The notes beneath the pieces were generated by a model. It was given only the letters and a program-made list of their open reading frames with translations. It was not told the DNA's origin and searched no databases. From assembly GCA_009837885.1 (NCBI GenBank), contig VXSP01000045.1, positions 325,526-389,525 of the forward strand: 64,000 nt of DNA, in the 5' to 3' direction. Every line of letters starts with the position of its first letter. Within the stretch, counting starts at the first letter, position 1. The translations under genes and the position numbers were made by a program. This DNA is from Holophagales bacterium. GTDB lineage: Bacteria; Acidobacteriota; Thermoanaerobaculia; Multivoradales; Multivoraceae. Shown one piece after another: positions 35,886 through 55,532 of this stretch.

Positions 35886-37187
35886 CTACTCCTCCGGGAC
35901 CGCGGCGCTCATCATGAAGCCCATCATCATCTCGTCGGTGGAGGGCTGGCCGAAGCGGACCTCGCGGTTCGAGTCGAAGCCGTAGCGAGCGGCCTTTTCG
36001 GGCGAGTTGTCGTACCAGGCGGTGTACTCGATTCGCGTGCCCTTGGGGATGCGCTTCATCTGGTCGTAGTAGTAGACCGTCTGCCAGGAGAAGTCGAACT
36101 CGGGCACGTCGAGCAGCACTTCACTCGTGCCGTCGGGGTAGAAGGCCTCGAAGCGCGCTGCCTTGCCGCGCATGTGCATGTGCGGCATGAGCGCGATGAT
36201 GTCCGAGTCCCTCCGGGCGACGGTGGAGTAGGGGCCCACCTGGTGGTTGCCGTCGTTCGGCGGTATCGCGAAGGTGAAGTCCATGATCGGCCGCAGACCC
36301 GACCCGAGCGAGCGGGTGACCGGCTCGTCGGCGAAGATGAAGCCGATCGACGACTGGTCCCACACGCCCGTGCCGGCGCCGGGCTCCTTGTGGTAGTGGA
36401 TGTCGAACGTCACCCGCGAGCCCTTCCTGAGCAGGAAGCCGTAGCCCTCCGGGTAGCGGTTCGCGTCGCTGCCGGAGGAGACGCCGCCCATGTAGTTGCC
36501 CGCGTTCTCCGGTGACGGGGCGATCTGATCCTGGTTGGGGAACGCGGGTGGAGGCGGCAGCTCGCCGTTCTCGTCCGGCGCCAGCAGGTGAAGGTTGAAG
36601 TGGTGGATGATCTCGCTGTCCGGCTTGCACTGGAAGGCGACCACCCAGCGGTCCTCCGGCAGGTCTTCTTCGGTCAGAACGTAGGAGAACGCTGCGTAGA
36701 GGTCTTCGACATCGTCCTCGACGAAGTAGGGCTCGGGCATCGTCACGACCAGGTCGGGTTCGCCCACGACCCAGCCGCCCGTGCTTGGGAACTCGCGCGG
36801 CGGCGGGGCGTCGGCGGCCTCGCCGGGAGCGGCGCCGCTGCCGGCCCAGTTGACCAGGGTCTCGATCTCGGCCGCGTCCAGCACCCGTTCGTTCGCGAAC
36901 GTGCCGTCGTGTTGCGGATGAGCGTCCCAGGGCGGCATCTCGCGGGCGGCGACCGTACGGGCGATCGACCGGGCCCAGGGGCGCACCTCGGCGTAGGTGG
37001 TGAGCGCCATCGGCGCCCTCATCCCGCCATAGTTGGCTCCGGCCGGGCGGTGACAGTCCTGGCAGTGCATCTGGAGCACCGGCAGCACGTCGGCGTAGAA
37101 AGTCGGCGCGTCGCGATCGGCGGCCGTCGCGGGCGCGGCAGCGACCGCGAGCAGAAGGGCGAGGCAAAGGAGGACTGAACGCTTCAT
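35886..37187 (-). CDS. Secreted fusion protein: N-terminal c-type heme-binding domain (CxxCH) + DBH/PHM-like copper type-II monooxygenase domains
   Basis: - Signal peptide.
- CQDCHRP heme-c motif in a Planctomycete-cytochrome-c-like context (FYADVLPVLQMHCQDCHRP).
- CuH-like His cluster (IIHHFNLH ... IHYH).
- CuM-like HMHMRG plus a Met-rich segment (DEMMMGFMM). Confidence 0.6.
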   Translation of the reverse strand: MKRSVLLCLALLLAVAAAPATAADRDAPTFYADVLPVLQMHCQDCHRPAGANYGGMRAPMALTTYAEVRPWARSIARTVAAREMPPWDAHPQHDGTFANERVLDAAEIETLVNWAGSGAAPGEAADAPPPREFPSTGGWVVGEPDLVVTMPEPYFVEDDVEDLYAAFSYVLTEEDLPEDRWVVAFQCKPDSEIIHHFNLHLLAPDENGELPPPPAFPNQDQIAPSPENAGNYMGGVSSGSDANRYPEGYGFLLRKGSRVTFDIHYHKEPGAGTGVWDQSSIGFIFADEPVTRSLGSGLRPIMDFTFAIPPNDGNHQVGPYSTVARRDSDIIALMPHMHMRGKAARFEAFYPDGTSEVLLDVPEFDFSWQTVYYYDQMKRIPKGTRIEYTAWYDNSPEKAARYGFDSNREVRFGQPSTDEMMMGFMMSAAVPEE

Positions 37188-37207: not shown

Positions 37208-40200
37208 TCAGGCGGTCGCCAACTGGCGCTCGGGGTGCATCTCGTCGACGTCGACGCCGACGATCTTCGAGACCCCGCGTTCCTCCATCGTGACCCCGTA
37301 GAGCGTGCTCGCGACCTGCATCGTCAGCTTGTTGTGGGTGATGACGAGGAACTGGGTCTCCGCCGACATCCGCTCCAGCATGTCGACGAAGCGCAGGATG
37401 TTCGCGTCGTCGAGCGGCGCGTCGACTTCGTCGAGGATGCAGAAGGGCGAGGGCTTGGTCTGGAAGAGGGCGAACAGCAGGGCGATCGCGGCCAGAGCCT
37501 TCTCGCCGCCTGAGAGCAGCATGATGTTCTGGGCCCGCTTTCCCGGCGGCCGGGCGGTGATCTCGATGCCGCAGTCAAGCGGATCCTCCTCGTCCATCAG
37601 GCGCATTTCCGCGTCTCCTCCGCGGAAAAGCTCCGTGAAGGTCCGCCCGAAGTTCTCGTTGACCTCGCTGAAGGTGGCGACGAAACGCTCGGAGGAGGTC
37701 CTGTCGATGTCGCGAATCGTGCGTTTCAGGCTCTCGACAGAGGACGCCACGTCGGCCCGCTGTCCGGCCAGGAAGGTGTGGCGCTCCTGCTGCTCGTCGT
37801 ACTCGTCGGCCGCCAGGACGTTGACCGGCCCCATCCGCTCCAGCAGGGTGCGCCGGCGTTCGAGCTCCTCGGTCATGGTCTCGAGGTCGGCGGCCTCGCC
37901 GTCCTGCGTTGCCGGCGCCTCCCGGGTGGCCAGCTCGCGCCGGAACTCCTCGCGGTACTCCCGTTCCAGGTGTTCGGCGTCCTGACGCAGGCCCGCCTGC
38001 CGCACGCGCAACTCCTCGATCCGGTCACGCAGTTCGTCGCGCCGGGTGCCGAGGTCGCGCATCCGGGCATCCAGTTCGCGTCCGCGGTCCCTCTCAGCCT
38101 CGAGAGCCTCCTGGGCGCCGGTCGCTTCGTCTCTGGCGCTCGTCCGCTCGGCCAGGGCGTCGTCGAGTTCCCGCCTCGCCCGGGTGGATGAGTCCTCGAG
38201 TTCGACAAGACGCCCGCGCAGCCGCTCCTGCTCGACCAGCCATTCCTCGTCGGCCTCGCGCAGACCCGCGATTCGTCCCTCGAGCCGCTCGGTTTCGTTC
38301 CGTTCGGTGGCGGAGCGCTCCTCGATCAACTCGAGTTGGCCCTGGCGGCCGGCGCCCGCGGTGACGTGCTCCTCCCGTTCTTCCCGAGCCCGCTCGACGG
38401 CGGCCGCCGCTTCCTGCACTGCCCGTTCCAGACTGCGGTGAACCGTCTCCCGGGCCTCGATGTCGGTCTGGATCCGGGCCTGCCGACTCTCCGTCTCGGC
38501 GATTCCGCGGATCAGTTCGTCGCGCTCGGTCTCGGCCGCCGCGCTCTCGCGGGCCTGCACGTCGCGTCGTTCGGTGATGTCCTGGAGCCGGGCCTTGGCG
38601 ACCGCGAGCTGTTCCCGTAGCCCGGCCGCGGCCTGCTCGATCCGTCGACCTTCCAGAGCGGCGTCGCGGACGCTCTCAGCGGCGGCATCGATGTCCCGAC
38701 CCAGTGCCGTGCAGCGCGCCTCGAGTTCGTCAGACCGTCGAACGAGGTCGTCGAGTTCGCGCTGGCGGCCCAGGGCGCCGGGCGCCGCGCCCTCGCCGCG
38801 GACGGTGACACGGCCGGCCTCGATCCAGAGCCGGTCGCGGCACAGGAAGGCGACACCCGGGTTGTCCGCCGCCAGGCGTTCCGCCGCTTCGGGGCTCTCC
38901 ACGAGACAGCCGGGCTGAAGCGAGCCCCGCAGATCCTCGGGGAGGCCCAGCGCGGTCCACACGTCGCCGACGATCTCCGGATCGTCGAGTTCCCCGAGTG
39001 CCGTGAGTTCCGACAGGGGCTGCGGCGGATCAGCCGGCCGGAGAAGTGTGACCTGGTGGTCGAAGCCGGCGAGAGCTCGGGCAATGGCGACCGCGTCTTC
39101 GTCGCCGGGGGCCAGGATCGCATTGCGCAGCGGACCGAGGAAGAGGTCCAGGCTGTCCTCCCAGCCCGCCGGGACGTTCACTTCGTCGCCGAGAAAGCGG
39201 GGCTCGGAGAGTTCCAGCTCGATCAGCGCGTCCCGGATTCCGGCCCGCAGTTCCTCGTCTCGCCGACCGAGCTCTCGGAGAACAGCCGCCCGCTTCTGGG
39301 CTTCGACCAGCTCCTCGCGGCGCGTTTCCAGTTCGGCCTGGGCGGTTTGCCGTCGGTCCCGGCTCGCTTCCAGGGCCACGGCCGCCCGCCGGGCGGCCTG
39401 GGTTTCGGTCGTCAGGGCGAGTTCCAGCGTTTCCACCTTGGCGCCCACGTCTCTGACGTCGACGTCGATCGAGCGGAGGGCTTCCTGGCTGCGTTCGAGG
39501 GTCTTTTCGGCGCGGTCGCGGCGGTCGACCGCCTTTTCGCTGACGATGCGCTCCGCGACCAGACTGCTTCGCAGTTCGTCGATGCCGACCCGCGATGCCG
39601 CCTGTTCCTCGAGCAGATCCCGGTGTCGTCTGCGCGCATCCTCGATCGCGGTATCGGCCTCGTCGATCCGCCGGCGGTCCTCGTGGACCTTCGCCAGCGC
39701 CTCTTCGCGCTCCGAGAGGAACATCTGGCGGCGTCCGGCGAGAACGGCGAGCGCCTCTTCGGCCGTTGCCAGTTCGCGGCGCCGCGTCTCCCCATCGCGG
39801 GCGCCTGCCTCGAGCCTCTCGGCGATCTCCGCTCGGGTGGCGCCGGCTCCCTTGATCAGTTCGCTCCGCCCCTCGATCGTCGCCAGCAGGGTGGCCTGAC
39901 GTTCGTGCGAGCGAACGGCCTCCTCTGTGCGCGCGTCGATGACGTGACGGGATTCGGCGAGTGCCGCGTTGCCGCGGGCGATCTCGGCCAGGAGTTCCGC
40001 CTCGCGGTCGGCCTCCCGTGCGAGAGCCGACCCGAGTTCCTCGAGCTCGCCACGGAGCTTCGCCCAGCGCGCCAGGAGCACGGCGTCGAGCAGTTCACGA
40101 TAGGCGTCCCTGCGCTCACGGTGGCGCCGGGCGGCGTTCGCCTGACGCTTGAGGGAGCGAAGACGGCGCTCGACCTCGGAGATGATGTCGTCGAGCCGGA

Positions 40201-40768
40201 GCAGATCGGCGGTCGCGTCCTCGAGCTTCAGGCTGGCCAGCCGCTTGCGGTTCTTGTAGCGGGTGATCCCGGCCGCTTCCTCGATCAGCTTGCGGCGTTC
40301 CTGGGGCTTGCCGGAGAGGATCATCCCGATCCGCCCCTGCTCGATCACGGAGTAGGCGCGAATGCCCAGACCCGTGTCCATCAGGATGTCGCGGATGTCC
40401 TTGAGCCGGGCCACCCGGTCATTCAACCGGTACTGGCCCTCGCCGCCCCGGAAGATTCGCCGCCCGATCGTGATGCGGCCATCCTCGGCGTTTTCGACGC
40501 TGCCGTCGGTGAGGAAGGTGAGGCTGACCTCGGCCATCCCCAGGGGCTTGCGTTGGCCGCTCCCGTTGAATATGACTTCCTCCATGGAGCTGCCGCGGAG
40601 CGACTTCGGGCTCTGTTCGCCGAGCACCCAGGTGATGGCCTCCGCCAGGTTGCTCTTGCCGCAGCCGTTGGGTCCGACGATCGCCGTGATGCCGCGGGCG
40701 AACCGGCTCGTTACCGGGTCGACGAAGGTCTTGAAGCCGTTGACTTCAAGGCTCTCGAGTTTGAGCAT
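37208..40768 (-). CDS. smc: Chromosome segregation protein SMC
   Basis: ATG at 40768. N-terminal Walker A (IVGPNGCGKSNL), long coiled coils, hinge, and C-terminal signature LSGGEKALAAIALLFA...ILDEVDAPLDD. The upstream part of the 1389-aa track ORF is junk. Confidence 0.9.
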   Translation of the reverse strand: MLKLESLEVNGFKTFVDPVTSRFARGITAIVGPNGCGKSNLAEAITWVLGEQSPKSLRGSSMEEVIFNGSGQRKPLGMAEVSLTFLTDGSVENAEDGRITIGRRIFRGGEGQYRLNDRVARLKDIRDILMDTGLGIRAYSVIEQGRIGMILSGKPQERRKLIEEAAGITRYKNRKRLASLKLEDATADLLRLDDIISEVERRLRSLKRQANAARRHRERRDAYRELLDAVLLARWAKLRGELEELGSALAREADREAELLAEIARGNAALAESRHVIDARTEEAVRSHERQATLLATIEGRSELIKGAGATRAEIAERLEAGARDGETRRRELATAEEALAVLAGRRQMFLSEREEALAKVHEDRRRIDEADTAIEDARRRHRDLLEEQAASRVGIDELRSSLVAERIVSEKAVDRRDRAEKTLERSQEALRSIDVDVRDVGAKVETLELALTTETQAARRAAVALEASRDRRQTAQAELETRREELVEAQKRAAVLRELGRRDEELRAGIRDALIELELSEPRFLGDEVNVPAGWEDSLDLFLGPLRNAILAPGDEDAVAIARALAGFDHQVTLLRPADPPQPLSELTALGELDDPEIVGDVWTALGLPEDLRGSLQPGCLVESPEAAERLAADNPGVAFLCRDRLWIEAGRVTVRGEGAAPGALGRQRELDDLVRRSDELEARCTALGRDIDAAAESVRDAALEGRRIEQAAAGLREQLAVAKARLQDITERRDVQARESAAAETERDELIRGIAETESRQARIQTDIEARETVHRSLERAVQEAAAAVERAREEREEHVTAGAGRQGQLELIEERSATERNETERLEGRIAGLREADEEWLVEQERLRGRLVELEDSSTRARRELDDALAERTSARDEATGAQEALEAERDRGRELDARMRDLGTRRDELRDRIEELRVRQAGLRQDAEHLEREYREEFRRELATREAPATQDGEAADLETMTEELERRRTLLERMGPVNVLAADEYDEQQERHTFLAGQRADVASSVESLKRTIRDIDRTSSERFVATFSEVNENFGRTFTELFRGGDAEMRLMDEEDPLDCGIEITARPPGKRAQNIMLLSGGEKALAAIALLFALFQTKPSPFCILDEVDAPLDDANILRFVDMLERMSAETQFLVITHNKLTMQVASTLYGVTMEERGVSKIVGVDVDEMHPERQLATA

Positions 40769-40912
40769 CGTGCGTGTGGTGGCCAATCGGGCTGGTTGAG
40801 CTTCGGGGAACATAACAGGGTTCATGCATAAGTCACAAGTGGTTGTGCCGGCGACGGACCGCGTCCACAACATGTGGCGTCGCGAGCGCGCCGCTGATAC
40901 GCTGCCGCGGCC

Positions 40913-41466
40913 GTGAGTGCGCTGACTGTCAAGCGGATGCTGTTCGACGCGCCGCAGATGGCGCGGATGATGCGCCGGATGGCGTTGGAGGTGGTCGAGC
41001 GGGCGGGGGGCACCGATTCGCTGATGCTGGTCGGCGTGCGCACGCGCGGCGTGCCCCTGGCCGACTTCGTCGCCGCCGAGATCAAGCGCACCGAAGGCGT
41101 CGCCGTGCCAGTGGGCGTGCTCGACATCACGCTCTACCGGGACGATCTCTCGACCATCGCGCCGCAGCCCGTGGTCAAGGAGAGCGTGATGCCGGTGCCG
41201 ATCGACGACCGAATCGTCGTGCTCTGCGACGACGTCCTCTACAGCGGCCGCACGATCCGGGCGGCGATGGACGCTCTGATCATGGACTACGGCCGGCCGC
41301 GGGCGATCCGCCTGGCGGTGCTGATCGACCGTGGCCACCGGGAACTGCCGATCCACGCCGACTGCGTCGGTGAACACGTGCAGACGACCGACACCGAGGT
41401 GATCAAGGTCTCTTACGCCGCCACCGACGGCGGCAAGGAGATGGTCGAGCTCCTGGAACGCGAGGG

Positions 41467-47260: not shown

Positions 47261-47950
47261 GTGTTCATGAGCTATCGAGCAGTCATCTTCGACCTGGGCG
47301 GAGTCGTCTTCGGCTCCCCGCTGCACGCCATCCGGCGCTACGAACAGGCGAACGGCATCGAGGAGAATTTCGTCAACCGCCTGGTCGTGGCGGCCGGGCC
47401 GGGAGGCTCCTGGCAGCGGATGGAGCGCGGCGAGCTGGTCATGGGGCCGGGCTTCTTCGCCGCCTTCGACGACGATGTGAGGGCGGCCGATCCCTCGGTG
47501 GCCGAGCGTTTCTCGGCCGAGGAGATGATGGCGGCGATCGCGGAGGAGTCAAAGCCCAGGCCGCAGATGATCGACGCGCTGCGGCGGTTACGCGCCGGCG
47601 GCTACACCGTGACGGCGTTGACGAACAACTGGGTCAGCGAGGAGGAACGGGAACCCGCGGATGCCGAGGAGGCCGCGATGCGGGCCGAGGTCCGTGCCCT
47701 GTTCGACGACTACGTCGAGTCGAGCGTCGTCGGCCTGCGCAAGCCCGATCCCGCGATCTACCGACTGGCCTGCGGCCGGATCGGCGTCGAACCGCGCGAG
47801 GCGGTGTTCCTGGACGACATCGGTTCGAACCTGAAGAGCGCGCGGGCACTCGGCATGACGACGATCAAGGTCGACGACGCCGACGACGCCCTCGCGGAAC
47901 TCTGGCGGACGCTGGCCAGGAGGCGGCGCGACAGAAACGACATGGAGTGA
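47261..47950 (+). CDS. HAD-superfamily hydrolase (epoxide-hydrolase N-terminal-domain-like)
   Basis: HAD motif I (VIFDLGGVV), plus motif III/IV regions. Confidence 0.8.
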   Translation: MFMSYRAVIFDLGGVVFGSPLHAIRRYEQANGIEENFVNRLVVAAGPGGSWQRMERGELVMGPGFFAAFDDDVRAADPSVAERFSAEEMMAAIAEESKPRPQMIDALRRLRAGGYTVTALTNNWVSEEEREPADAEEAAMRAEVRALFDDYVESSVVGLRKPDPAIYRLACGRIGVEPREAVFLDDIGSNLKSARALGMTTIKVDDADDALAELWRTLARRRRDRNDME

Positions 47951-48021
47951 GTTCTGTCGCGAAGCCTCCTGGCGAGGTGGGGGCTGGGGGCCAAACAGCG
48001 AGCCTGCGAGCGGTTTGGCGG

Positions 48022-48816
48022 CTACTCCGGAAGGGTGAACGTGAGATCGAGCGTCGCGGCGAGCCCGTCGAGCAGCGTCACGCCGGACCGCATCGTGCCG
48101 AGACGTTCGTGCCACGCCTCGATCGTGTAGGTGCCGGCCGGGAGCCCGGGAATCTCGAACGAGCCGTCCGGCCCGGAGACGGCGAAGTAGGGGTGGCTGA
48201 AGACCCCGACATAGCTCGACATCCACGGGTGGACGTCGCACTTGATCCGGAACGCCGGCTCCTCGTCGGTGAACGAGAACGTGGCCTGCTTGATGGCCGC
48301 CGGCATGGCCCGGTTGAAGGGGCGGTTGACCTCGGACAGCGAGTGGACGTTGTGGAGCAACTCGTCCGAGTTCAGCACCTTGAGCTCCTGGCCCACCATG
48401 ATGCCTGCGACGCGGGGCGTGTAGCGGCAGCCCTGCTGGTCGATCACGGGCGGTTCCGCCGGCGGGTAGGGCCCCTGTGGAACGTTGTCGGCGACGTAGA
48501 CGAGGACGTTGGCCAGGCCGGCCTGATCGTCGACCGCGAGGATCTCCGGATAGACCGGCTCCGTGTGCTTGGCGGCGCAGGCGGGATCGGCATGCATGTT
48601 GAGCGGCCGGAGTTCCGGCACCTCGCCGTCGAAGCGAACGACGCCGGCGATCGAACTGTTGCCGAGGGGTTCGGTGGGTGTGGCTTCGGGGGCTGAGGGA
48701 GTGTCGCCGCCGGAGTGCTCCGGGGCATCGCCGGCGCAGCCGGCCAGGAGGAAGGCGAAGGGAAGAAGGGCCGTGGAGAGGGCCAGCGGAAGCGTAGTTC
48801 TCGATGCGCAGATCAT
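48022..48816 (-). CDS. Cupredoxin-domain lipoprotein (amicyanin-like type-1 copper site); paralog A
   Basis: Lipobox LLAGC. Type-1 Cu ligand pattern LLHNVHSL ... CDVHPWM (His ... Cys-x2-His-x2-Met, as in amicyanin MPHNVHF/CTPHPFM). Shares about 50% identity with 52397..53113. Confidence 0.6.
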   Translation of the reverse strand: MICASRTTLPLALSTALLPFAFLLAGCAGDAPEHSGGDTPSAPEATPTEPLGNSSIAGVVRFDGEVPELRPLNMHADPACAAKHTEPVYPEILAVDDQAGLANVLVYVADNVPQGPYPPAEPPVIDQQGCRYTPRVAGIMVGQELKVLNSDELLHNVHSLSEVNRPFNRAMPAAIKQATFSFTDEEPAFRIKCDVHPWMSSYVGVFSHPYFAVSGPDGSFEIPGLPAGTYTIEAWHERLGTMRSGVTLLDGLAATLDLTFTLPE

Positions 48817-48971: not shown

Positions 48972-50432
48972 ATGGCACAGAGTCAGGACAACACTCAGGA
49001 ACCCGTCGCCGGGCGTGCGCCGCTGATCGTCGGCGGTTACGACTTCCGTTCCCTGACGGAAGCGGTCGCGGTGCCGGTCGAGCGCAAGACGCCGATCGGC
49101 TGGTGGTTCTTCTTCCTGCCGTCGCTGGCGATGCTGGGCCTGTTCGGCGTTTCGATCGGCTGGCTGTTCTGGGAGGGCACCGGCATCTGGGGCCTGAACA
49201 ACCCGGTCAACTGGGGCTTCGCGATCGTCAACTTCGTCTTCTGGGTCGGCATCGGCCATGCCGGCACGTTGATCTCCGCGATCCTCTTCCTGTTTCGGCA
49301 GAAGTGGCGCACGTCGATCAACCGCGCGGCGGAGGCGATGACGATCTTCGCGGTCATGTGCGCCCTGGTCTTCCCGGGAATCCACGTCGGCCGCGTGTGG
49401 GTCGCCTACTGGATGTTCCCGCTGCCGAATCAGATGGACATGTGGCCGAACTTCCGCAGCCCGCTGATCTGGGACGTGTTTGCGGTGTCGATCTACGGCA
49501 CGGTGTCCCTGATGTTCTGGTACGTGGGCCTGATCCCGGATCTCGCGACGATCCGCGACCGCGCCAAGACGCGGATCAAGCAGATCGCCTACGGCATCTT
49601 CGCTCTCGGCTGGCGCGGTTCGCACCGGAACTGGCTCCACTACGAGCGGGCCTACCTGATGCTGGCCGGTCTGGCGACGCCGCTGGTTCTCTCCGTCCAC
49701 TCGGTCGTGTCGATGGACTTCGCCACCGCCCAGTTGCCGGGCTGGCACACGACGATCTTCCCGCCGTACTTCGTCGCCGGGGCGATCTTCTCAGGCTTCG
49801 CCATGGTCATGACCCTGATGCTGATCTGCCGGGTCCTGTTCAAGATGGAGGACATCATCACGATGCGCCACCTCGAGAACATGGCCAAGATCATGCTGCT
49901 GACGGGGTGCATGGTCGGTTACGCCTACGGCATCGAGATGTTCATCGCCTGGTACAGCGGCAACCCGTACGAGCAGTTCGCCTTCGCCAACCGGGCCCTC
50001 GGGCCCTACGCCTGGGCCTACTGGATCATGGTGAGCTGCAACGTGCTCACGCCGCAGTTGTTCTGGTTCAAGAAGATGCGCAACCACATCGGCTGGCTGT
50101 TCATCTCCTCGATCCTGATCAACATCGGCATGTGGTTCGAGCGTTTCGTCATCGTCACCTCGTCGCTGCACCGCGACTTCCTGCCCGCGAACTGGGACTA
50201 CTACCAGGCGACCTTCTGGGACTTCGCTTCGCTGATCGGCAGCTTCGGCCTGTTCTTCACGATGTTCTGCCTGTTCGCCCGGTTCCTGCCGCTGGTGGCG
50301 ACGGCGGAGGTCAAGACCGTGCTGCCGGAGGCCGACCCGCACCAGGGCGAGGAACTGGTGCGCGTGGTGCCAGCCGGCTCCGGAGTGGAACCCGCGCCGC
50401 AGGCGGCGCCGGCCGGCGGGGGAGGGTCCTGA
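48972..50432 (+). CDS. actC: NrfD/PsrC-family membrane subunit, Alternative Complex III ActC-like
   Basis: 486 aa, about 10 TM, NrfD-type. Immediately followed (2-nt gap) by a DUF3341/ActD-like gene and a second NrfD-like gene. This order is diagnostic of the ACIII membrane arm. Confidence 0.7.
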
Positions 50433-50433
50433 C

Positions 50434-51042
50434 ATGGGCCTGATGACCCTGGACGTGCCGGAAGCGTCGGCGGGTTACAGCCACTACGGTGTGCTGGCCC
50501 GCTTCGAAACCGCGAAGGCGCTCTACCGGGCCTGTGAGGCGGTCCGGGACGCCGGCTACTCGAAGTGGGACGCGCTGACGCCGTTTCCGGTTCATGGTCT
50601 CGAGAAGGCGATGGGGCTGAAGCCGTCCAGGCTGCCGTTCCTCGTGCTGGCCACGGGACTTTCCGGCGCCGGGCTCGGCTTCGCCCTGCAGAGCTGGGTC
50701 CACATCAAGGGCTACCCGCTGATCATCAGCGGCAAGCCGCTGTTCACCTGGCCCGCCTTCGTGCCGGTCACCTTCGAGCTCGGAGTGCTCGGCGCTGCGC
50801 TGGGGGCGGTGCTCGGCATGTTCGCCTTCAACAAGTTGCCCACCTACCACCATCCGCTCTTCCGGTCGAAGAACTTCGCGCGCGTGACGGACGACGGTCT
50901 GTTCATCGCCATCGAGGCCTGGGATCCGAAGTACGACGACCAGGACACCGCGGAGTTCCTGAGCAGGCTCGGCGCGGTCGAGGTGGAGCACGTGCCGATC
51001 GACGATCCCGCGGACGACGGTGACGGGGGAGGCGCCGCCTGA
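50434..51042 (+). CDS. actD: ACIII ActD-like membrane protein (DUF3341)
   Basis: Blocks RDAGYSKWDALTPFPVHGL..AMGLKPSRLP, YPLIISGKP..WPAFVPVTFELGVL, and GMFAFNKLPTYHHPLFRSKNF match the DUF3341/ActD signature. Confidence 0.7.
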   Translation: MGLMTLDVPEASAGYSHYGVLARFETAKALYRACEAVRDAGYSKWDALTPFPVHGLEKAMGLKPSRLPFLVLATGLSGAGLGFALQSWVHIKGYPLIISGKPLFTWPAFVPVTFELGVLGAALGAVLGMFAFNKLPTYHHPLFRSKNFARVTDDGLFIAIEAWDPKYDDQDTAEFLSRLGAVEVEHVPIDDPADDGDGGGAA

Positions 51043-53154: not shown

Positions 53155-54912
53155 ATGGCGGAGCCCGTTCACGCTTCACCTGCACACGACGAGCATCACC
53201 ACGAGCAGAGCTTCTGGCGGAAGTACATCTTCTCGACCGATCACAAGGTGATCGGCGTCCAGTACTCGGTCACGGGTCTGGCGTTTCTCCTCTTCGGGTT
53301 CGTCCTGATGATGGTGATGCGCTGGAACCTCGCCTACCCGGGCGAGCCGATTCCCTTCATCGGCTCGCTCCTCGGCGAGAACCGGGCGCCCGGCGGCATC
53401 ATGCTGCCGGACTTCTACAACGAGCTCGGCGCCATGCACGGCACGATCATGGTGTTCCTGGGGGTCGTGCCGCTGGCGGTCGGCGGCTTCGGCAACTTCG
53501 TCATGCCGCTGCAGCTCGGCGCCCCGGACATGGCCTTCCCGCGGATCAACATGATCAGCTACTGGTGCCTGTTCCTGGGCGGCGTGACGATGTTCGCCAG
53601 CTTCTTCCTGCCGAACGGCGCCGCGGGCAACGGCTGGACCTCCTACTCGCCGCTGGCCGACATCGCGCTGAACGGCCAGACCGCCTGGCTGATCGGGATG
53701 ATCTTCCTGATCACGTCGTCCCTGCTGGGCGCGGTCAACTTCATCACCACGGCGATCCAGCTCCGGGCTCCGGGCATGACCTGGATGCGACTGCCCTTCT
53801 TCTGCTGGGCGCAGATCGTGACCGCCTTCCTCCTGCTGCTGGCCTTCCCGCCGCTCGAGGCCGCGGGCGTGCTGCAGTTGATGGACCGGGTCGCGAACAC
53901 CAGTTTCTTCATTCCGGAGGGCCTGGTGGTCGGTGGCGAAGTGGTCGACCGGAGCGGAGGCGGCAGCCCGCTGCTCTGGCAGCACCTGTTCTGGTTCCTG
54001 GCCCACCCGGAGGTCTACGTGCTCATCCTGCCGGCGATGGGGATCGTCGCCGAGGTGATCGCGAACAACTCCCGCAAGCCGCTCTGGGGTTACCGCTCGA
54101 TGGTCTACTCCCTGATCTTCCTCGGCTTCATGAGCTTCATCGTCTGGGCGCACCACATGTTCATCACCGGCATGGGCTCGGTGATGTCGACCTTCTTCCA
54201 GACGACGACGATGATCATCTCGATCCCGTCGGTCATCATCCTGAGCGCGCTCTTCATCTCGCTGTGGGGCGGTTCCATCCGCTACAACACGCCGATGCTG
54301 TTCGCGCTCGGCTTCCTGCCGATGTTCGGCATAGGAGGGCTGACCGGGCTGCCGCTCGGTCTCTCGGCGGCGGACATCCCGCTCCACGACACCTACTACG
54401 TGATCGGGCACTTCCACTACGTGGTGGCGCCCGGAACCCTGTTCGCGCTGTTCGCCGGCGTCTACTACTGGTTCCCCAAGGTGACGGGGCGCAAGATGAA
54501 CGAGTTCCTGGGCAAGCTCCACTTCTGGCCCTCGCTCGTCTTCATGAACGGGGTTTTCTTCCCGATGATGATCCAGGGCCTGAACGGCGTATCGCGCCGG
54601 CTCGCCGACGGCGGCATCACTTACGACTTCGCGGGCGAGGTCGCCGGGCTGAACCGGATGATGTCGGTTTCGGCCTGGTGCCTGGCGGTGGCGCAGATTC
54701 CGTTCATCATCAACTTCTTCATGAGCATCCGGAACGGCGAGAAGGCCGGACGCAACCCCTGGAACTCGACCACCGTCGAGTGGCTGGCGCCGTCGCCGGC
54801 TCCGCACGGCAACTTCGATCAGCCGATCGAGGTTGTGCGCGGGCCGTACGAGTACAGCGTCCCGGGTAGCGACAAGGACTACGTCCCACAGGCCGAACCG
54901 GCCTCAACCTGA
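53155..54912 (+). CDS. ctaD: Cytochrome c oxidase subunit I (A-type heme-copper oxidase)
   Basis: Canonical HCO-I blocks (WFFGHPEVY-type region LFWFLAHPEVYVLILP, HHMF, and His ligands of heme a/a3-CuB). Confidence 0.95.
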   Translation: MAEPVHASPAHDEHHHEQSFWRKYIFSTDHKVIGVQYSVTGLAFLLFGFVLMMVMRWNLAYPGEPIPFIGSLLGENRAPGGIMLPDFYNELGAMHGTIMVFLGVVPLAVGGFGNFVMPLQLGAPDMAFPRINMISYWCLFLGGVTMFASFFLPNGAAGNGWTSYSPLADIALNGQTAWLIGMIFLITSSLLGAVNFITTAIQLRAPGMTWMRLPFFCWAQIVTAFLLLLAFPPLEAAGVLQLMDRVANTSFFIPEGLVVGGEVVDRSGGGSPLLWQHLFWFLAHPEVYVLILPAMGIVAEVIANNSRKPLWGYRSMVYSLIFLGFMSFIVWAHHMFITGMGSVMSTFFQTTTMIISIPSVIILSALFISLWGGSIRYNTPMLFALGFLPMFGIGGLTGLPLGLSAADIPLHDTYYVIGHFHYVVAPGTLFALFAGVYYWFPKVTGRKMNEFLGKLHFWPSLVFMNGVFFPMMIQGLNGVSRRLADGGITYDFAGEVAGLNRMMSVSAWCLAVAQIPFIINFFMSIRNGEKAGRNPWNSTTVEWLAPSPAPHGNFDQPIEVVRGPYEYSVPGSDKDYVPQAEPAST

Positions 54913-54932
54913 CCGTTCGAGGACCTCAAGAG

Positions 54933-55532
54933 ATGGAAATCCCCTACACGGTAGAGGCCCACCCCGAAACCGGCCTCAACAACGGGAAGATCGGGATCTG
55001 GCTGTTCCTGACCTCGGAGGTCATGCTGTTCGGGGCGTTGTTCGCCACGTTCATCATGCTGCGCCTGGGATCGGACGGCAACTGGGCCGCGATGCAGGCG
55101 GAAGCGGAGCTCAACATTCCGCTGGCGACGCTCAACACGGCCGTGCTGATCGCCTCCAGTCTGACGATGGTCATGGCCTGGGCGTCGCTGATGCGCGGGC
55201 AACTGGGCCGGTTCAAGCTGTTCGGCTGGCTGACCGTCGCCTGCGGCGGCGTCTTCTTGGTCATCAAGTACTTCGAGTACACGGCGAAGTTCGAGCACCA
55301 CCACTACCCGGAGTCGAGCACCTTCCTCGCCATCTACTTCGCGATGACGGGCCTCCACGCCCTGCACGTGATCGGCGGCATGGCCTGGAACGCCTACTTC
55401 ACCGGGCCGGGGTCGAAGCTTTTCCACACGAACCGGCAGTGGCTGACCGACCGGGTCGAGCACTCCGGTCTGTTCTGGCACTTCGTCGACCTGGTCTGGA
55501 TCTTCCTCTTCCCCGTCTTCTACCTGCTGTAG
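54933..55532 (+). CDS. ctaE: Cytochrome c oxidase subunit III
   Basis: Typical CoxIII 5-7 TM pattern and conserved blocks (WLFLTSEVMLFGALF..., FWHFVDLVWIFLF). Confidence 0.9.
   Translation: MEIPYTVEAHPETGLNNGKIGIWLFLTSEVMLFGALFATFIMLRLGSDGNWAAMQAEAELNIPLATLNTAVLIASSLTMVMAWASLMRGQLGRFKLFGWLTVACGGVFLVIKYFEYTAKFEHHHYPESSTFLAIYFAMTGLHALHVIGGMAWNAYFTGPGSKLFHTNRQWLTDRVEHSGLFWHFVDLVWIFLFPVFYLL

Follow-up and report, generated by a model that had tools for sequence, protein, structure and literature searches.

Introduction

The textbook examples of non-coupled binuclear copper monooxygenases are PHM, DBH and tyramine β-monooxygenase (TBM). The animal enzymes of the PHM/DBH type make amidated hormones and noradrenaline, and they receive their electrons from ascorbate. 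In PHM, which is the catalytic core of PAM, the copper site CuH is the electron-entry site; the two coppers lie about 11 Å apart, and their reduction and the crossing of electrons between them have been a long-running question. Fusions with cytochrome c have precedents in NirK, cNosZ and the quinohemoprotein dehydrogenases. In a metalloproteome review, PHM and DBM appear solely among the eukaryotic cuproproteins (PMC7435645), and Krupovic et al. contrasted PHM, which is widespread in eukaryotes, with bacterial PNGase F (PMC8812541). In this study, we analyzed a 64,000-nucleotide (nt) stretch of contig VXSP01000045.1 (positions 325,526 to 389,525 of the forward strand) in the assembly GCA_009837885.1 of a Holophagales bacterium, and this whole stretch is referred to as the window. 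It contains a gene whose product carries a c-type heme domain in front of a dicopper module with the PHM/DBH fold. We propose, with some reserve, that the protein is a periplasmic copper monooxygenase supplied with electrons by its own heme domain. No description of a bacterial cytochrome c-PHM fusion was found in the open full-text literature; subscription-only works were outside the scope of this search, and an earlier report is possible.

The gene and its product

The gene was complete (35886..37187, minus strand; all features within it are on this strand and are given in window positions). According to the open reading frame (ORF) list, it starts with ATG, ends with a stop codon at 35886-35888 and encodes a 433-aa precursor. 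These bounds agreed exactly with those of an earlier reading of the same DNA made from the letters and the ORF list (hereafter the initial annotation). The precursor consists of a signal peptide, a heme c domain and a PHM/DBH-like dicopper module, and at least 1440 homologues of the window protein were found. The identical protein is present in NCBI as MXX77061.1 and MYF96506.1 under the title "hypothetical protein [Holophagales bacterium]". A tblastn search also found a counterpart with 99% amino-acid identity to the gene product in OZ242353.1, the chromosome of a 'Candidatus Multivorans' metagenome-assembled genome (MAG; Thermoanaerobaculia, Acidobacteriota).

The copper module has the fold of PHM and DBH

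The structure of the window protein was predicted with AlphaFold2 on the basis of 45 homologues, and the model had a predicted local distance difference test (pLDDT) score of 83 and a predicted template modelling (pTM) score of 0.80. In a Foldseek search of the PDB, each of the best 31 matches was to one of two proteins, rat PHM and human DBH, with E values of 5e-12 to 1e-8, template modelling (TM) scores of 0.55-0.66 on the target and alignments of about 295 columns that covered both jelly-roll domains. The matches that followed were unrelated proteins with TM scores below 0.3. The same relationship was recovered from sequence alone: a profile built from a wider set of family members (A3; 30-73% identical to the window protein) matched PHM at E 8.5e-13 and DBH at E 2.4e-9 in an hmmsearch against PDB sequences, and hhalign aligned the family with the rat PHM core over 252 columns with 97.4% probability and E 1.1e-11. 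PDB entry 5WM0 served to verify the rat PHM sequence, and the PHM residue numbers used below were checked. The PHM/DBH fold was thus confirmed by structure search, profile-to-sequence search and profile-profile alignment, and the two halves described in the initial annotation were located. The N-terminal jelly-roll domain with the CuH site spans residues ~138-292 (36312..36776; Foldseek, hmmsearch against PDB sequences and hhalign), and the C-terminal jelly-roll domain with the CuM site spans residues ~293-433 (35889..36311; Pfam Cu2_monoox_C, Foldseek and profile alignments).

The depth of the alignment mattered for this assignment. Single-sequence PDB searches and searches with the profile of a narrower alignment (A1; 45 homologues with 55-87% identity) did not find PHM, and only A3 recovered it. 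Of the Pfam families named in the initial annotation, Cu2_monoox_C (PF03712) was matched by 39 of the 45 family members; the relative P0151 scored above the cutoff (25 vs 23), and the window protein itself was below it. Cu2_monooxygen (PF01082) did not match the window protein alone, and the relative P0168 exceeded its cutoff (31.3 vs 30). No PDB structure of a bacterial homologue was found by Foldseek.

The window protein belongs to the PHM/DBH superfamily by its fold and ligands. It shares with PHM (1PHM, 1SDW, 3MLL) the two jelly-roll domains, the His-His...His motif of CuH, the His-x-His...Met motif of CuM, the equivalents of Y79 and Q272 and the SxDEM sequence around the Met ligand, at an identity of about 16%. 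Unlike PHM, which works in eukaryotic secretory granules, it is bacterial and predicted to be periplasmic; it has a fused heme c domain, lacks a PAL partner and contains none of the disulfides of which PHM has five. DBH, TBM and MOXD1 (4ZEL) have the same catalytic core and copper ligands (DBH: Foldseek E 4e-11). In DBH as in the window protein, an extra N-terminal domain precedes the core, which is DOMON in the former and a c-type cytochrome in the latter, whereas the C-terminal dimerization domain and the use of ascorbate are found only in DBH. The window protein differs from all characterized members in being bacterial and periplasmic, in lacking disulfides and DOMON, and in carrying a fused heme c domain.

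Conservation of the copper ligands and the candidate pocket

All six copper ligands of PHM had counterparts in the hhalign and A3 profile alignments, as expected from the His cluster and the HxH/Met set described in the initial annotation. H195-H196 (36600..36605) aligned with the CuH ligands H107-H108 of PHM, and H264 in DIHYHKE (36396..36398) aligned with the third CuH ligand, H172. H336-M-H338 (36174..36182) aligned with the CuM ligands H242 and H244, and M420 in STDEMMMGF (35928..35930) aligned with the CuM ligand M314, which lies in SSDEM in PHM. Residues around the sites were also retained: Y164 (36696..36698), which aligned with PHM Y79 near CuH, was invariant in A1, and Q369 of the W368-Q369 pair (36081..36086) aligned with Q272, a conserved second-sphere residue whose position in rat PHM was checked.

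The six ligands were invariant across the 45 homologues of A1. A wider set consisted of 150 diverse representatives of 50%-identity clusters, and here the CuH ligands were kept in 142/151 (H195), 148/151 (H196) and 151/152 (H264) sequences, and the CuM ligands in 144/146 (H336 and H338, each) and 142/142 (M420). W368 and Q369 were found in 143/145 and 142/145, respectively. Overall, the heme and copper ligands were retained in 94-100% of the 150 representatives. The conservation of these putative ligand motifs is far beyond chance, and it shows both predicted copper sites to be intact and under strong purifying selection.

In peptidylglycine hydroxylase (EC 1.14.17.3), the carboxylate of the peptide is bound by R240, N316 and Y318 (PHM numbering). 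The window protein has M334, M422 and F424 at the equivalent positions (hhalign), which varied across the representatives of the wider family. The substrate is therefore not a peptidyl-glycine, and this candidate was rejected; a PAL-like neighbour was also not seen. On the other hand, a conserved set consisting of R340, W368, Q369, N394 and E419 probably shapes a pocket. The equivalent of PHM Q170 was D262 in the window protein and Q in most of the bacterial family. C187 (36627-36629) is the sole Cys outside the signal peptide and the heme motif; it lies in FQCKP, eight residues before HH, and was invariant in the close family. Because most members of the wider family have V, I or F at this position, we rejected the idea that C187 generally serves as an additional copper or redox ligand.

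The heme c domain and the export signal

The region in front of the copper module was assigned as a mono-heme c-type cytochrome domain (residues ~27-125; 36813..37109) based on Pfam matches in relatives, profile matches and the helices of the model. It contains the putative heme attachment motif CQDCH at residues 42-46 (37050..37064), with C42, C45 and the proximal ligand H46. M84 in the MPPW motif (36936..36938) is a candidate distal ligand, a role suggested by its conservation. In the AlphaFold2 model, the core helices were at residues 30-41, 65-80 and 105-116; the CxxCH motif comes directly after helix 30-41 and the invariant Met after helix 65-80, and three helices are expected for a small c-type cytochrome. 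C42, C45, H46 and M84 were invariant in A1, and among the cluster representatives CxxCH was kept in 143/143 and M84 in 148/148. Since M60 alternates with Phe, M84 is the better candidate for the distal ligand.

Cytochrom_C or Cytochrome_CBB3 of Pfam was matched by 40-41 of the 45 family members (best E 4.6e-7) and Haem_bd by 37, and precomputed matches to PF00034 or PF13442 were present in some relatives. Over the heme stretch, the A3 profile matched only c-type cytochromes in the PDB, which were the C-terminal heme domain of hydrazine synthase alpha (6e-4) and cytochrome c 4rlr (0.006), followed by cytochrome c6 and CcoP. These results support the predicted cytochrome context of the CxxCH motif. 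An NCBIfam scan of the window protein yielded no family and gave only a sub-threshold match to SoxX.

The initial annotation had further labelled this domain as Planctomycete-type (PSCyt1), a label that holds for the motif layout and not for membership of the family. The mono-heme domains of the PSCyt1/Haem_bd type, such as that of hydrazine synthase alpha (5C2V), share with the window protein the layout F-x-x-D-[VI]-x-P-[IL]-L-x-x-x-C-x-x-C-H and a later segment L-x-x-x-E-x-x-x-[IL]-x-x-W-x-x-x-G-A. However, the PSCyt1 family itself (PF07635) was absent from the Pfam matches of the window protein even at E<=10 and from the families matched by the 45 members, and the conserved distal candidate in the window family is the Met of MPPW.

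The N-terminus reads MKRSVLLCLALLLAVAAAPATA followed by AD in the translation and resembles a signal peptide. Residues 1-22 (37122..37187) show a Sec-type pattern, with MKR, a hydrophobic core and A-T-A then A, and the N-termini of homologues were variable and hydrophobic. With this Sec-like N-terminus, the 433-aa protein is predicted to be exported to the periplasm, in agreement with the secretion proposed in the initial annotation. Periplasmic export is required for covalent heme attachment.

Proposed function and electron route

Based on these features, we propose that the window protein is a periplasmic non-coupled two-copper monooxygenase of the PHM/DBH/TBM type, in which a fused mono-heme cytochrome c takes the role of ascorbate. 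We put the probability of this proposal at roughly 60%. The precursor would be exported by Sec, and heme would be attached at C42 and C45, its axial ligands being H46 and probably M84. Two coppers would be bound, one by H195, H196 and H264 as CuH, the electron-transfer site, and the other by H336, H338 and M420 as CuM, the O2-binding catalytic site. The heme would be reduced by a periplasmic electron carrier, plausibly a c-type cytochrome pool fed by alternative complex III, whose genes lie about 12 kb away. In each turnover, the heme would then pass two electrons, one at a time, to CuH and on to CuM, where O2 would be activated and a C-H bond of the substrate hydroxylated. We infer the occupancy by heme and copper, the donor, the direction and route of electron flow and the monooxygenase chemistry by drawing on what is established for PHM and on the precedent of cytochrome c-fused NirK and NosZ.

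The arrangement of the domains is consistent with this route. The heme domain is N-terminal, and the linker between it and the CuH domain is conserved and confidently modelled, with pLDDT scores of 92-94 at residues 111-130. By analogy from general knowledge, a tethered heme domain serves as the electron entry to an extracytoplasmic copper centre in three-domain NirK (Ralstonia pickettii NiR) and in cNosZ, and the cytochrome domain of cellobiose dehydrogenase feeds LPMOs by the same design logic. These enzymes differ from the window protein in having unrelated folds (cupredoxin, LPMO) and other copper sites. To our knowledge, ascorbate does not occur in the bacterial periplasm, and a tethered cytochrome would therefore be a sensible substitute, making the enzyme probably independent of ascorbate.

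The window also encodes components of an aerobic respiratory chain. The genes for ActC (NrfD-like) and ActD of alternative complex III, followed by those for COX1 and COX3, are located about 12-18 kb from the heme-PHM gene (48972-51042 and 53155-55532, plus strand). Directly upstream of ActC, there was no sign of a multiheme or Fe-S subunit resembling ActA or ActB, and 47947-48696 had neither CxxCH nor a Pfam match. The presence of ActC/ActD and COX1/COX3 indicates O2 respiration and a periplasmic pool of cytochrome c in this organism. The suggestion in the initial annotation that the enzyme is wired into the respiratory chain would fit this chain and the precedents above. As regards architecture and cofactor sites, that annotation is supported, and neither of the two outcomes that it had named as refuting was observed: the His/Met motifs lie at the ligand positions of a PHM-like fold, and by sequence the CxxCH has a cytochrome context. 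Its functional part is probable by analogy with PHM.

Evidence against the proposal and alternative explanations

Several observations weigh against a heme-driven monooxygenase. On its own, the window protein scored below the Pfam gathering scores (Cu2_monoox_C, 16.5 bits vs 23, E 0.006; Cytochrom_C, 16.6 bits vs 21.3, E 0.02), and its assignment was therefore beyond the reach of a routine single-sequence Pfam scan. The isolated heme-domain model (pLDDT 79) gave cytochromes c6 as the top Foldseek matches at a non-significant level (E ~1.3, TM ~0.3), and the heme loop (residues 45-57) was poorly modelled with pLDDT below 50. We attribute the non-significant fold search to the apo state of the model, as apo models of heme proteins are unreliable. 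The five disulfides and the substrate-binding residues of PHM are absent, so that the chemistry may have diverged, and the AhpC/TSA domain found in many relatives makes peroxide or thiol chemistry conceivable. For this orthologue group, no conserved operon or substrate clue was found outside its own lineage, and the neighbours in other lineages differ.

With the same cofactors, the protein could do another job and act as a cytochrome c-dependent reductase or oxidase of O2, H2O2, organic peroxides or nitrite, with no organic substrate being hydroxylated, or, as a related possibility, as an H2O2-using peroxygenase. The peroxiredoxin-like AhpC/TSA domain fused before the heme-copper module in many relatives is in line with such a function, as are PHM crystal structures with nitrite and azide at copper among the Foldseek matches, the known design of cytochrome c-fused copper nitrite reductases (general knowledge) and the lack of a substrate-related neighbour for the orthologue group of the window protein. 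However, the AhpC/TSA domain is absent from the window protein itself. The protein keeps the full ligand set of PHM with the Met of CuM, as well as the counterparts of Y79 and Q272, features that go with coupled O2 activation in PHM, and the conserved cleft set of R340, W368, Q369, N394 and E419 suggests a specific bound substrate, so that we regard this explanation as unlikely. Electrons could also flow in the reverse direction, with the copper module oxidizing a substrate and the heme passing the electrons to the respiratory chain, in analogy to quinohemoprotein dehydrogenases. It is general knowledge that the fused cytochrome c of quinohemoprotein alcohol dehydrogenases accepts electrons, and the gene adjoins PQQ dehydrogenases at distant paralogue loci, but a PQQ neighbour could equally be an electron source. 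No dehydrogenase of the PHM/DBH class is known, and the His3 and His2Met mononuclear sites are, from established knowledge of PHM, built for O2 activation and need electron input; the reverse flow appears quite improbable.

Alternatively, the window protein might be no enzyme and bind copper or carry electrons in the periplasm, for example in copper homeostasis, while merely keeping the PHM fold. This fold is common to non-redox proteins such as PNGase F (PMC8812541), and no conserved operon was found. Both copper sites and the second-sphere residues are nevertheless conserved across thousands of clusters, and the tandem paralogue arrays described below suggest a substrate diversification typical of enzymes, which leaves this explanation very improbable. 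Finally, CxxCH might be no heme site at all, but a coincidental or metal-binding Cys pair in a non-heme helical module, as could be argued from the non-significant fold search with the isolated domain and from the cytochrome scores of the window protein below the Pfam cutoff. Against this stand the unbroken retention of CxxCH and M84 in the representatives (143/143 and 148/148), relatives that exceed the Pfam cytochrome cutoffs, a profile that matches only c-type cytochromes in the PDB on the heme domain, and the signal peptide, so that we give this explanation hardly any credence.

Family size, distribution and domain architectures

To gauge the extent of the family, 1.84 billion cluster representatives were searched exhaustively with HMMER. 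The family comprised 17,186 50%-identity clusters at E<=1e-3, 10,852 at E<=1e-10 and 3,125 at E<=1e-30. The heme and copper parts were both covered in all 150 best representatives; the fusion is therefore a single conserved module and not a curiosity of one genome. Members were named 'hypothetical' or 'cytochrome c family', and the JGI name for relatives was 'mono/diheme cytochrome c family protein'.

The module was found in at least 584 species genomes, among which the Gemmatimonas, Bryobacteraceae and Terriglobia matches were all MAGs. Within Acidobacteriota, they belonged to Thermoanaerobaculia, Holophagae, Vicinamibacteria, Bryobacterales, Blastocatellia and Terriglobia, and other carriers belonged to Sumerlaeota, Nitrospirales, Hydrogenedentota, Rhodothermaeota, Gemmatimonas and Gammaproteobacteria. 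A family of thousands of clusters with this spread, which includes Gemmatimonadota, would imply a common, undescribed periplasmic oxidation chemistry.

The module occurred alone, with about 430 aa as in the window, or, very often, behind an N-terminal AhpC/TSA-Redoxin domain. The order AhpC/TSA-Redoxin, heme c and PHM-like module was common and was seen among the relatives P0121, P0168, P0225, P0227, P0229, P0253 and P0256. When 12 long multi-domain relatives were scanned, CxxC was found in the redoxin domain of one (P0225). P0121 contained two heme-PHM units. Other additions to the module were DUF2911 (fused in P0131), EF-hand, TPR, GDSL-lipase and beta-propeller domains, with DUF3471 or PQQ-like propeller additions in other members.

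Given these numbers, the family may constitute a very large bacterial radiation of PHM/DBH-type monooxygenases in which an obligate heme c domain replaces ascorbate, acting as periplasmic C-H hydroxylases driven by the respiratory chain. We give this wider interpretation about even odds. If it is true, an enzyme class regarded as a neuroendocrine speciality of eukaryotes would belong mainly to bacteria, and the heme-wired form could be either the ancestral state or an independent answer to the problem of electron supply. A natural heme wired to CuH would also provide a spectroscopically visible and triggerable electron source for studying transfer between the coppers, and ascorbate-independent hydroxylases driven by cytochrome or an electrode would be attractive as biocatalysts.

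Genomic surroundings

The window is GC-rich, with 63-71% GC across 2-kb segments. No second copy of the gene was found within the 64-kb window; a weak tblastn match at 50.3-50.5 kb was judged spurious, being antisense to the ActC/NrfD gene. Scanning for promoters and terminators around the heme-PHM gene gave nothing informative.

On the same strand, smc lies 20 nt upstream of the heme-PHM gene, and no obvious Shine-Dalgarno sequence was found between the smc stop and the heme-PHM start. For the smc ORF (37208-41377, minus strand), which is listed with 1389 aa and a GTG start, the true start probably lies further downstream: its first ~200 residues look non-coding, and its counterparts in related genomes were mostly called at 1180-1230 aa, with a few at 1300-1450 aa. 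On the other side, a convergent gene for a TMEM220-like membrane protein (PF15071; 35499-35882, plus strand) ends 3 nt from the heme-PHM stop, with no terminator-like site found between the two genes, and a MarR gene and an HlyD/RND efflux pair follow beyond it.

Conservation of the neighbourhood, which the initial annotation had suggested as a check, was seen only at close range. The order smc / heme-PHM / TMEM220-like / MarR / HlyD-RND was kept within 'Ca. Multivorans' and is conserved there only by shared descent, whereas the neighbours differ beyond that lineage. A functional link to smc was rejected, as this order is not kept beyond 'Ca. Multivorans'. No operon conserved across phyla that would hint at the substrate was found.

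In orthologues with 55-60% identity from several phyla, a stand-alone CheY-type receiver gene (PF00072, 124-153 aa) was located directly upstream on the same strand. It was found at loci L002 (7557-7931), L051 (7464-7925), L057 (3869-4306), L059 (338-784) and L061 (7419-7826), and downstream instead at L078 (10708-11148). This gene was absent from the lineage of the window.

Paralogues with 36-47% identity occurred in a cluster that contains tandem heme-PHM copies, a secreted DUF2911 protein encoded downstream, a PQQ dehydrogenase, a 159-aa protein and a TPP enzyme with the twin-arginine motif SRREFIK, which is presumably periplasmic (L071, 3946-12135; L072, 3874-10095; L073, 275-8553; L068; L083, 2020-4688). 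This cluster may encode an oxidative pathway in the periplasm. Among distant paralogues with 26-47% identity to the window protein, heme-PHM genes were observed in tandem, two or three to an array, in Nitrospirales, Hydrogenedentota, Bryobacterales, Terriglobia and Blastocatellia (L068, 1954-4706; L072, 6570-9296; L076, 4478-9067; L078, 8007-10593; L079, 6217-10654), and these arrays suggest substrate diversification.

Many MAGs of close relatives bear isolate names (SB06xx, COS, RHO1, CO36388 and Plut) that we take to be of marine sponge or coral metagenome types. A paralogue with 43% identity (P0125) was carried by the same lineages as these MAGs.

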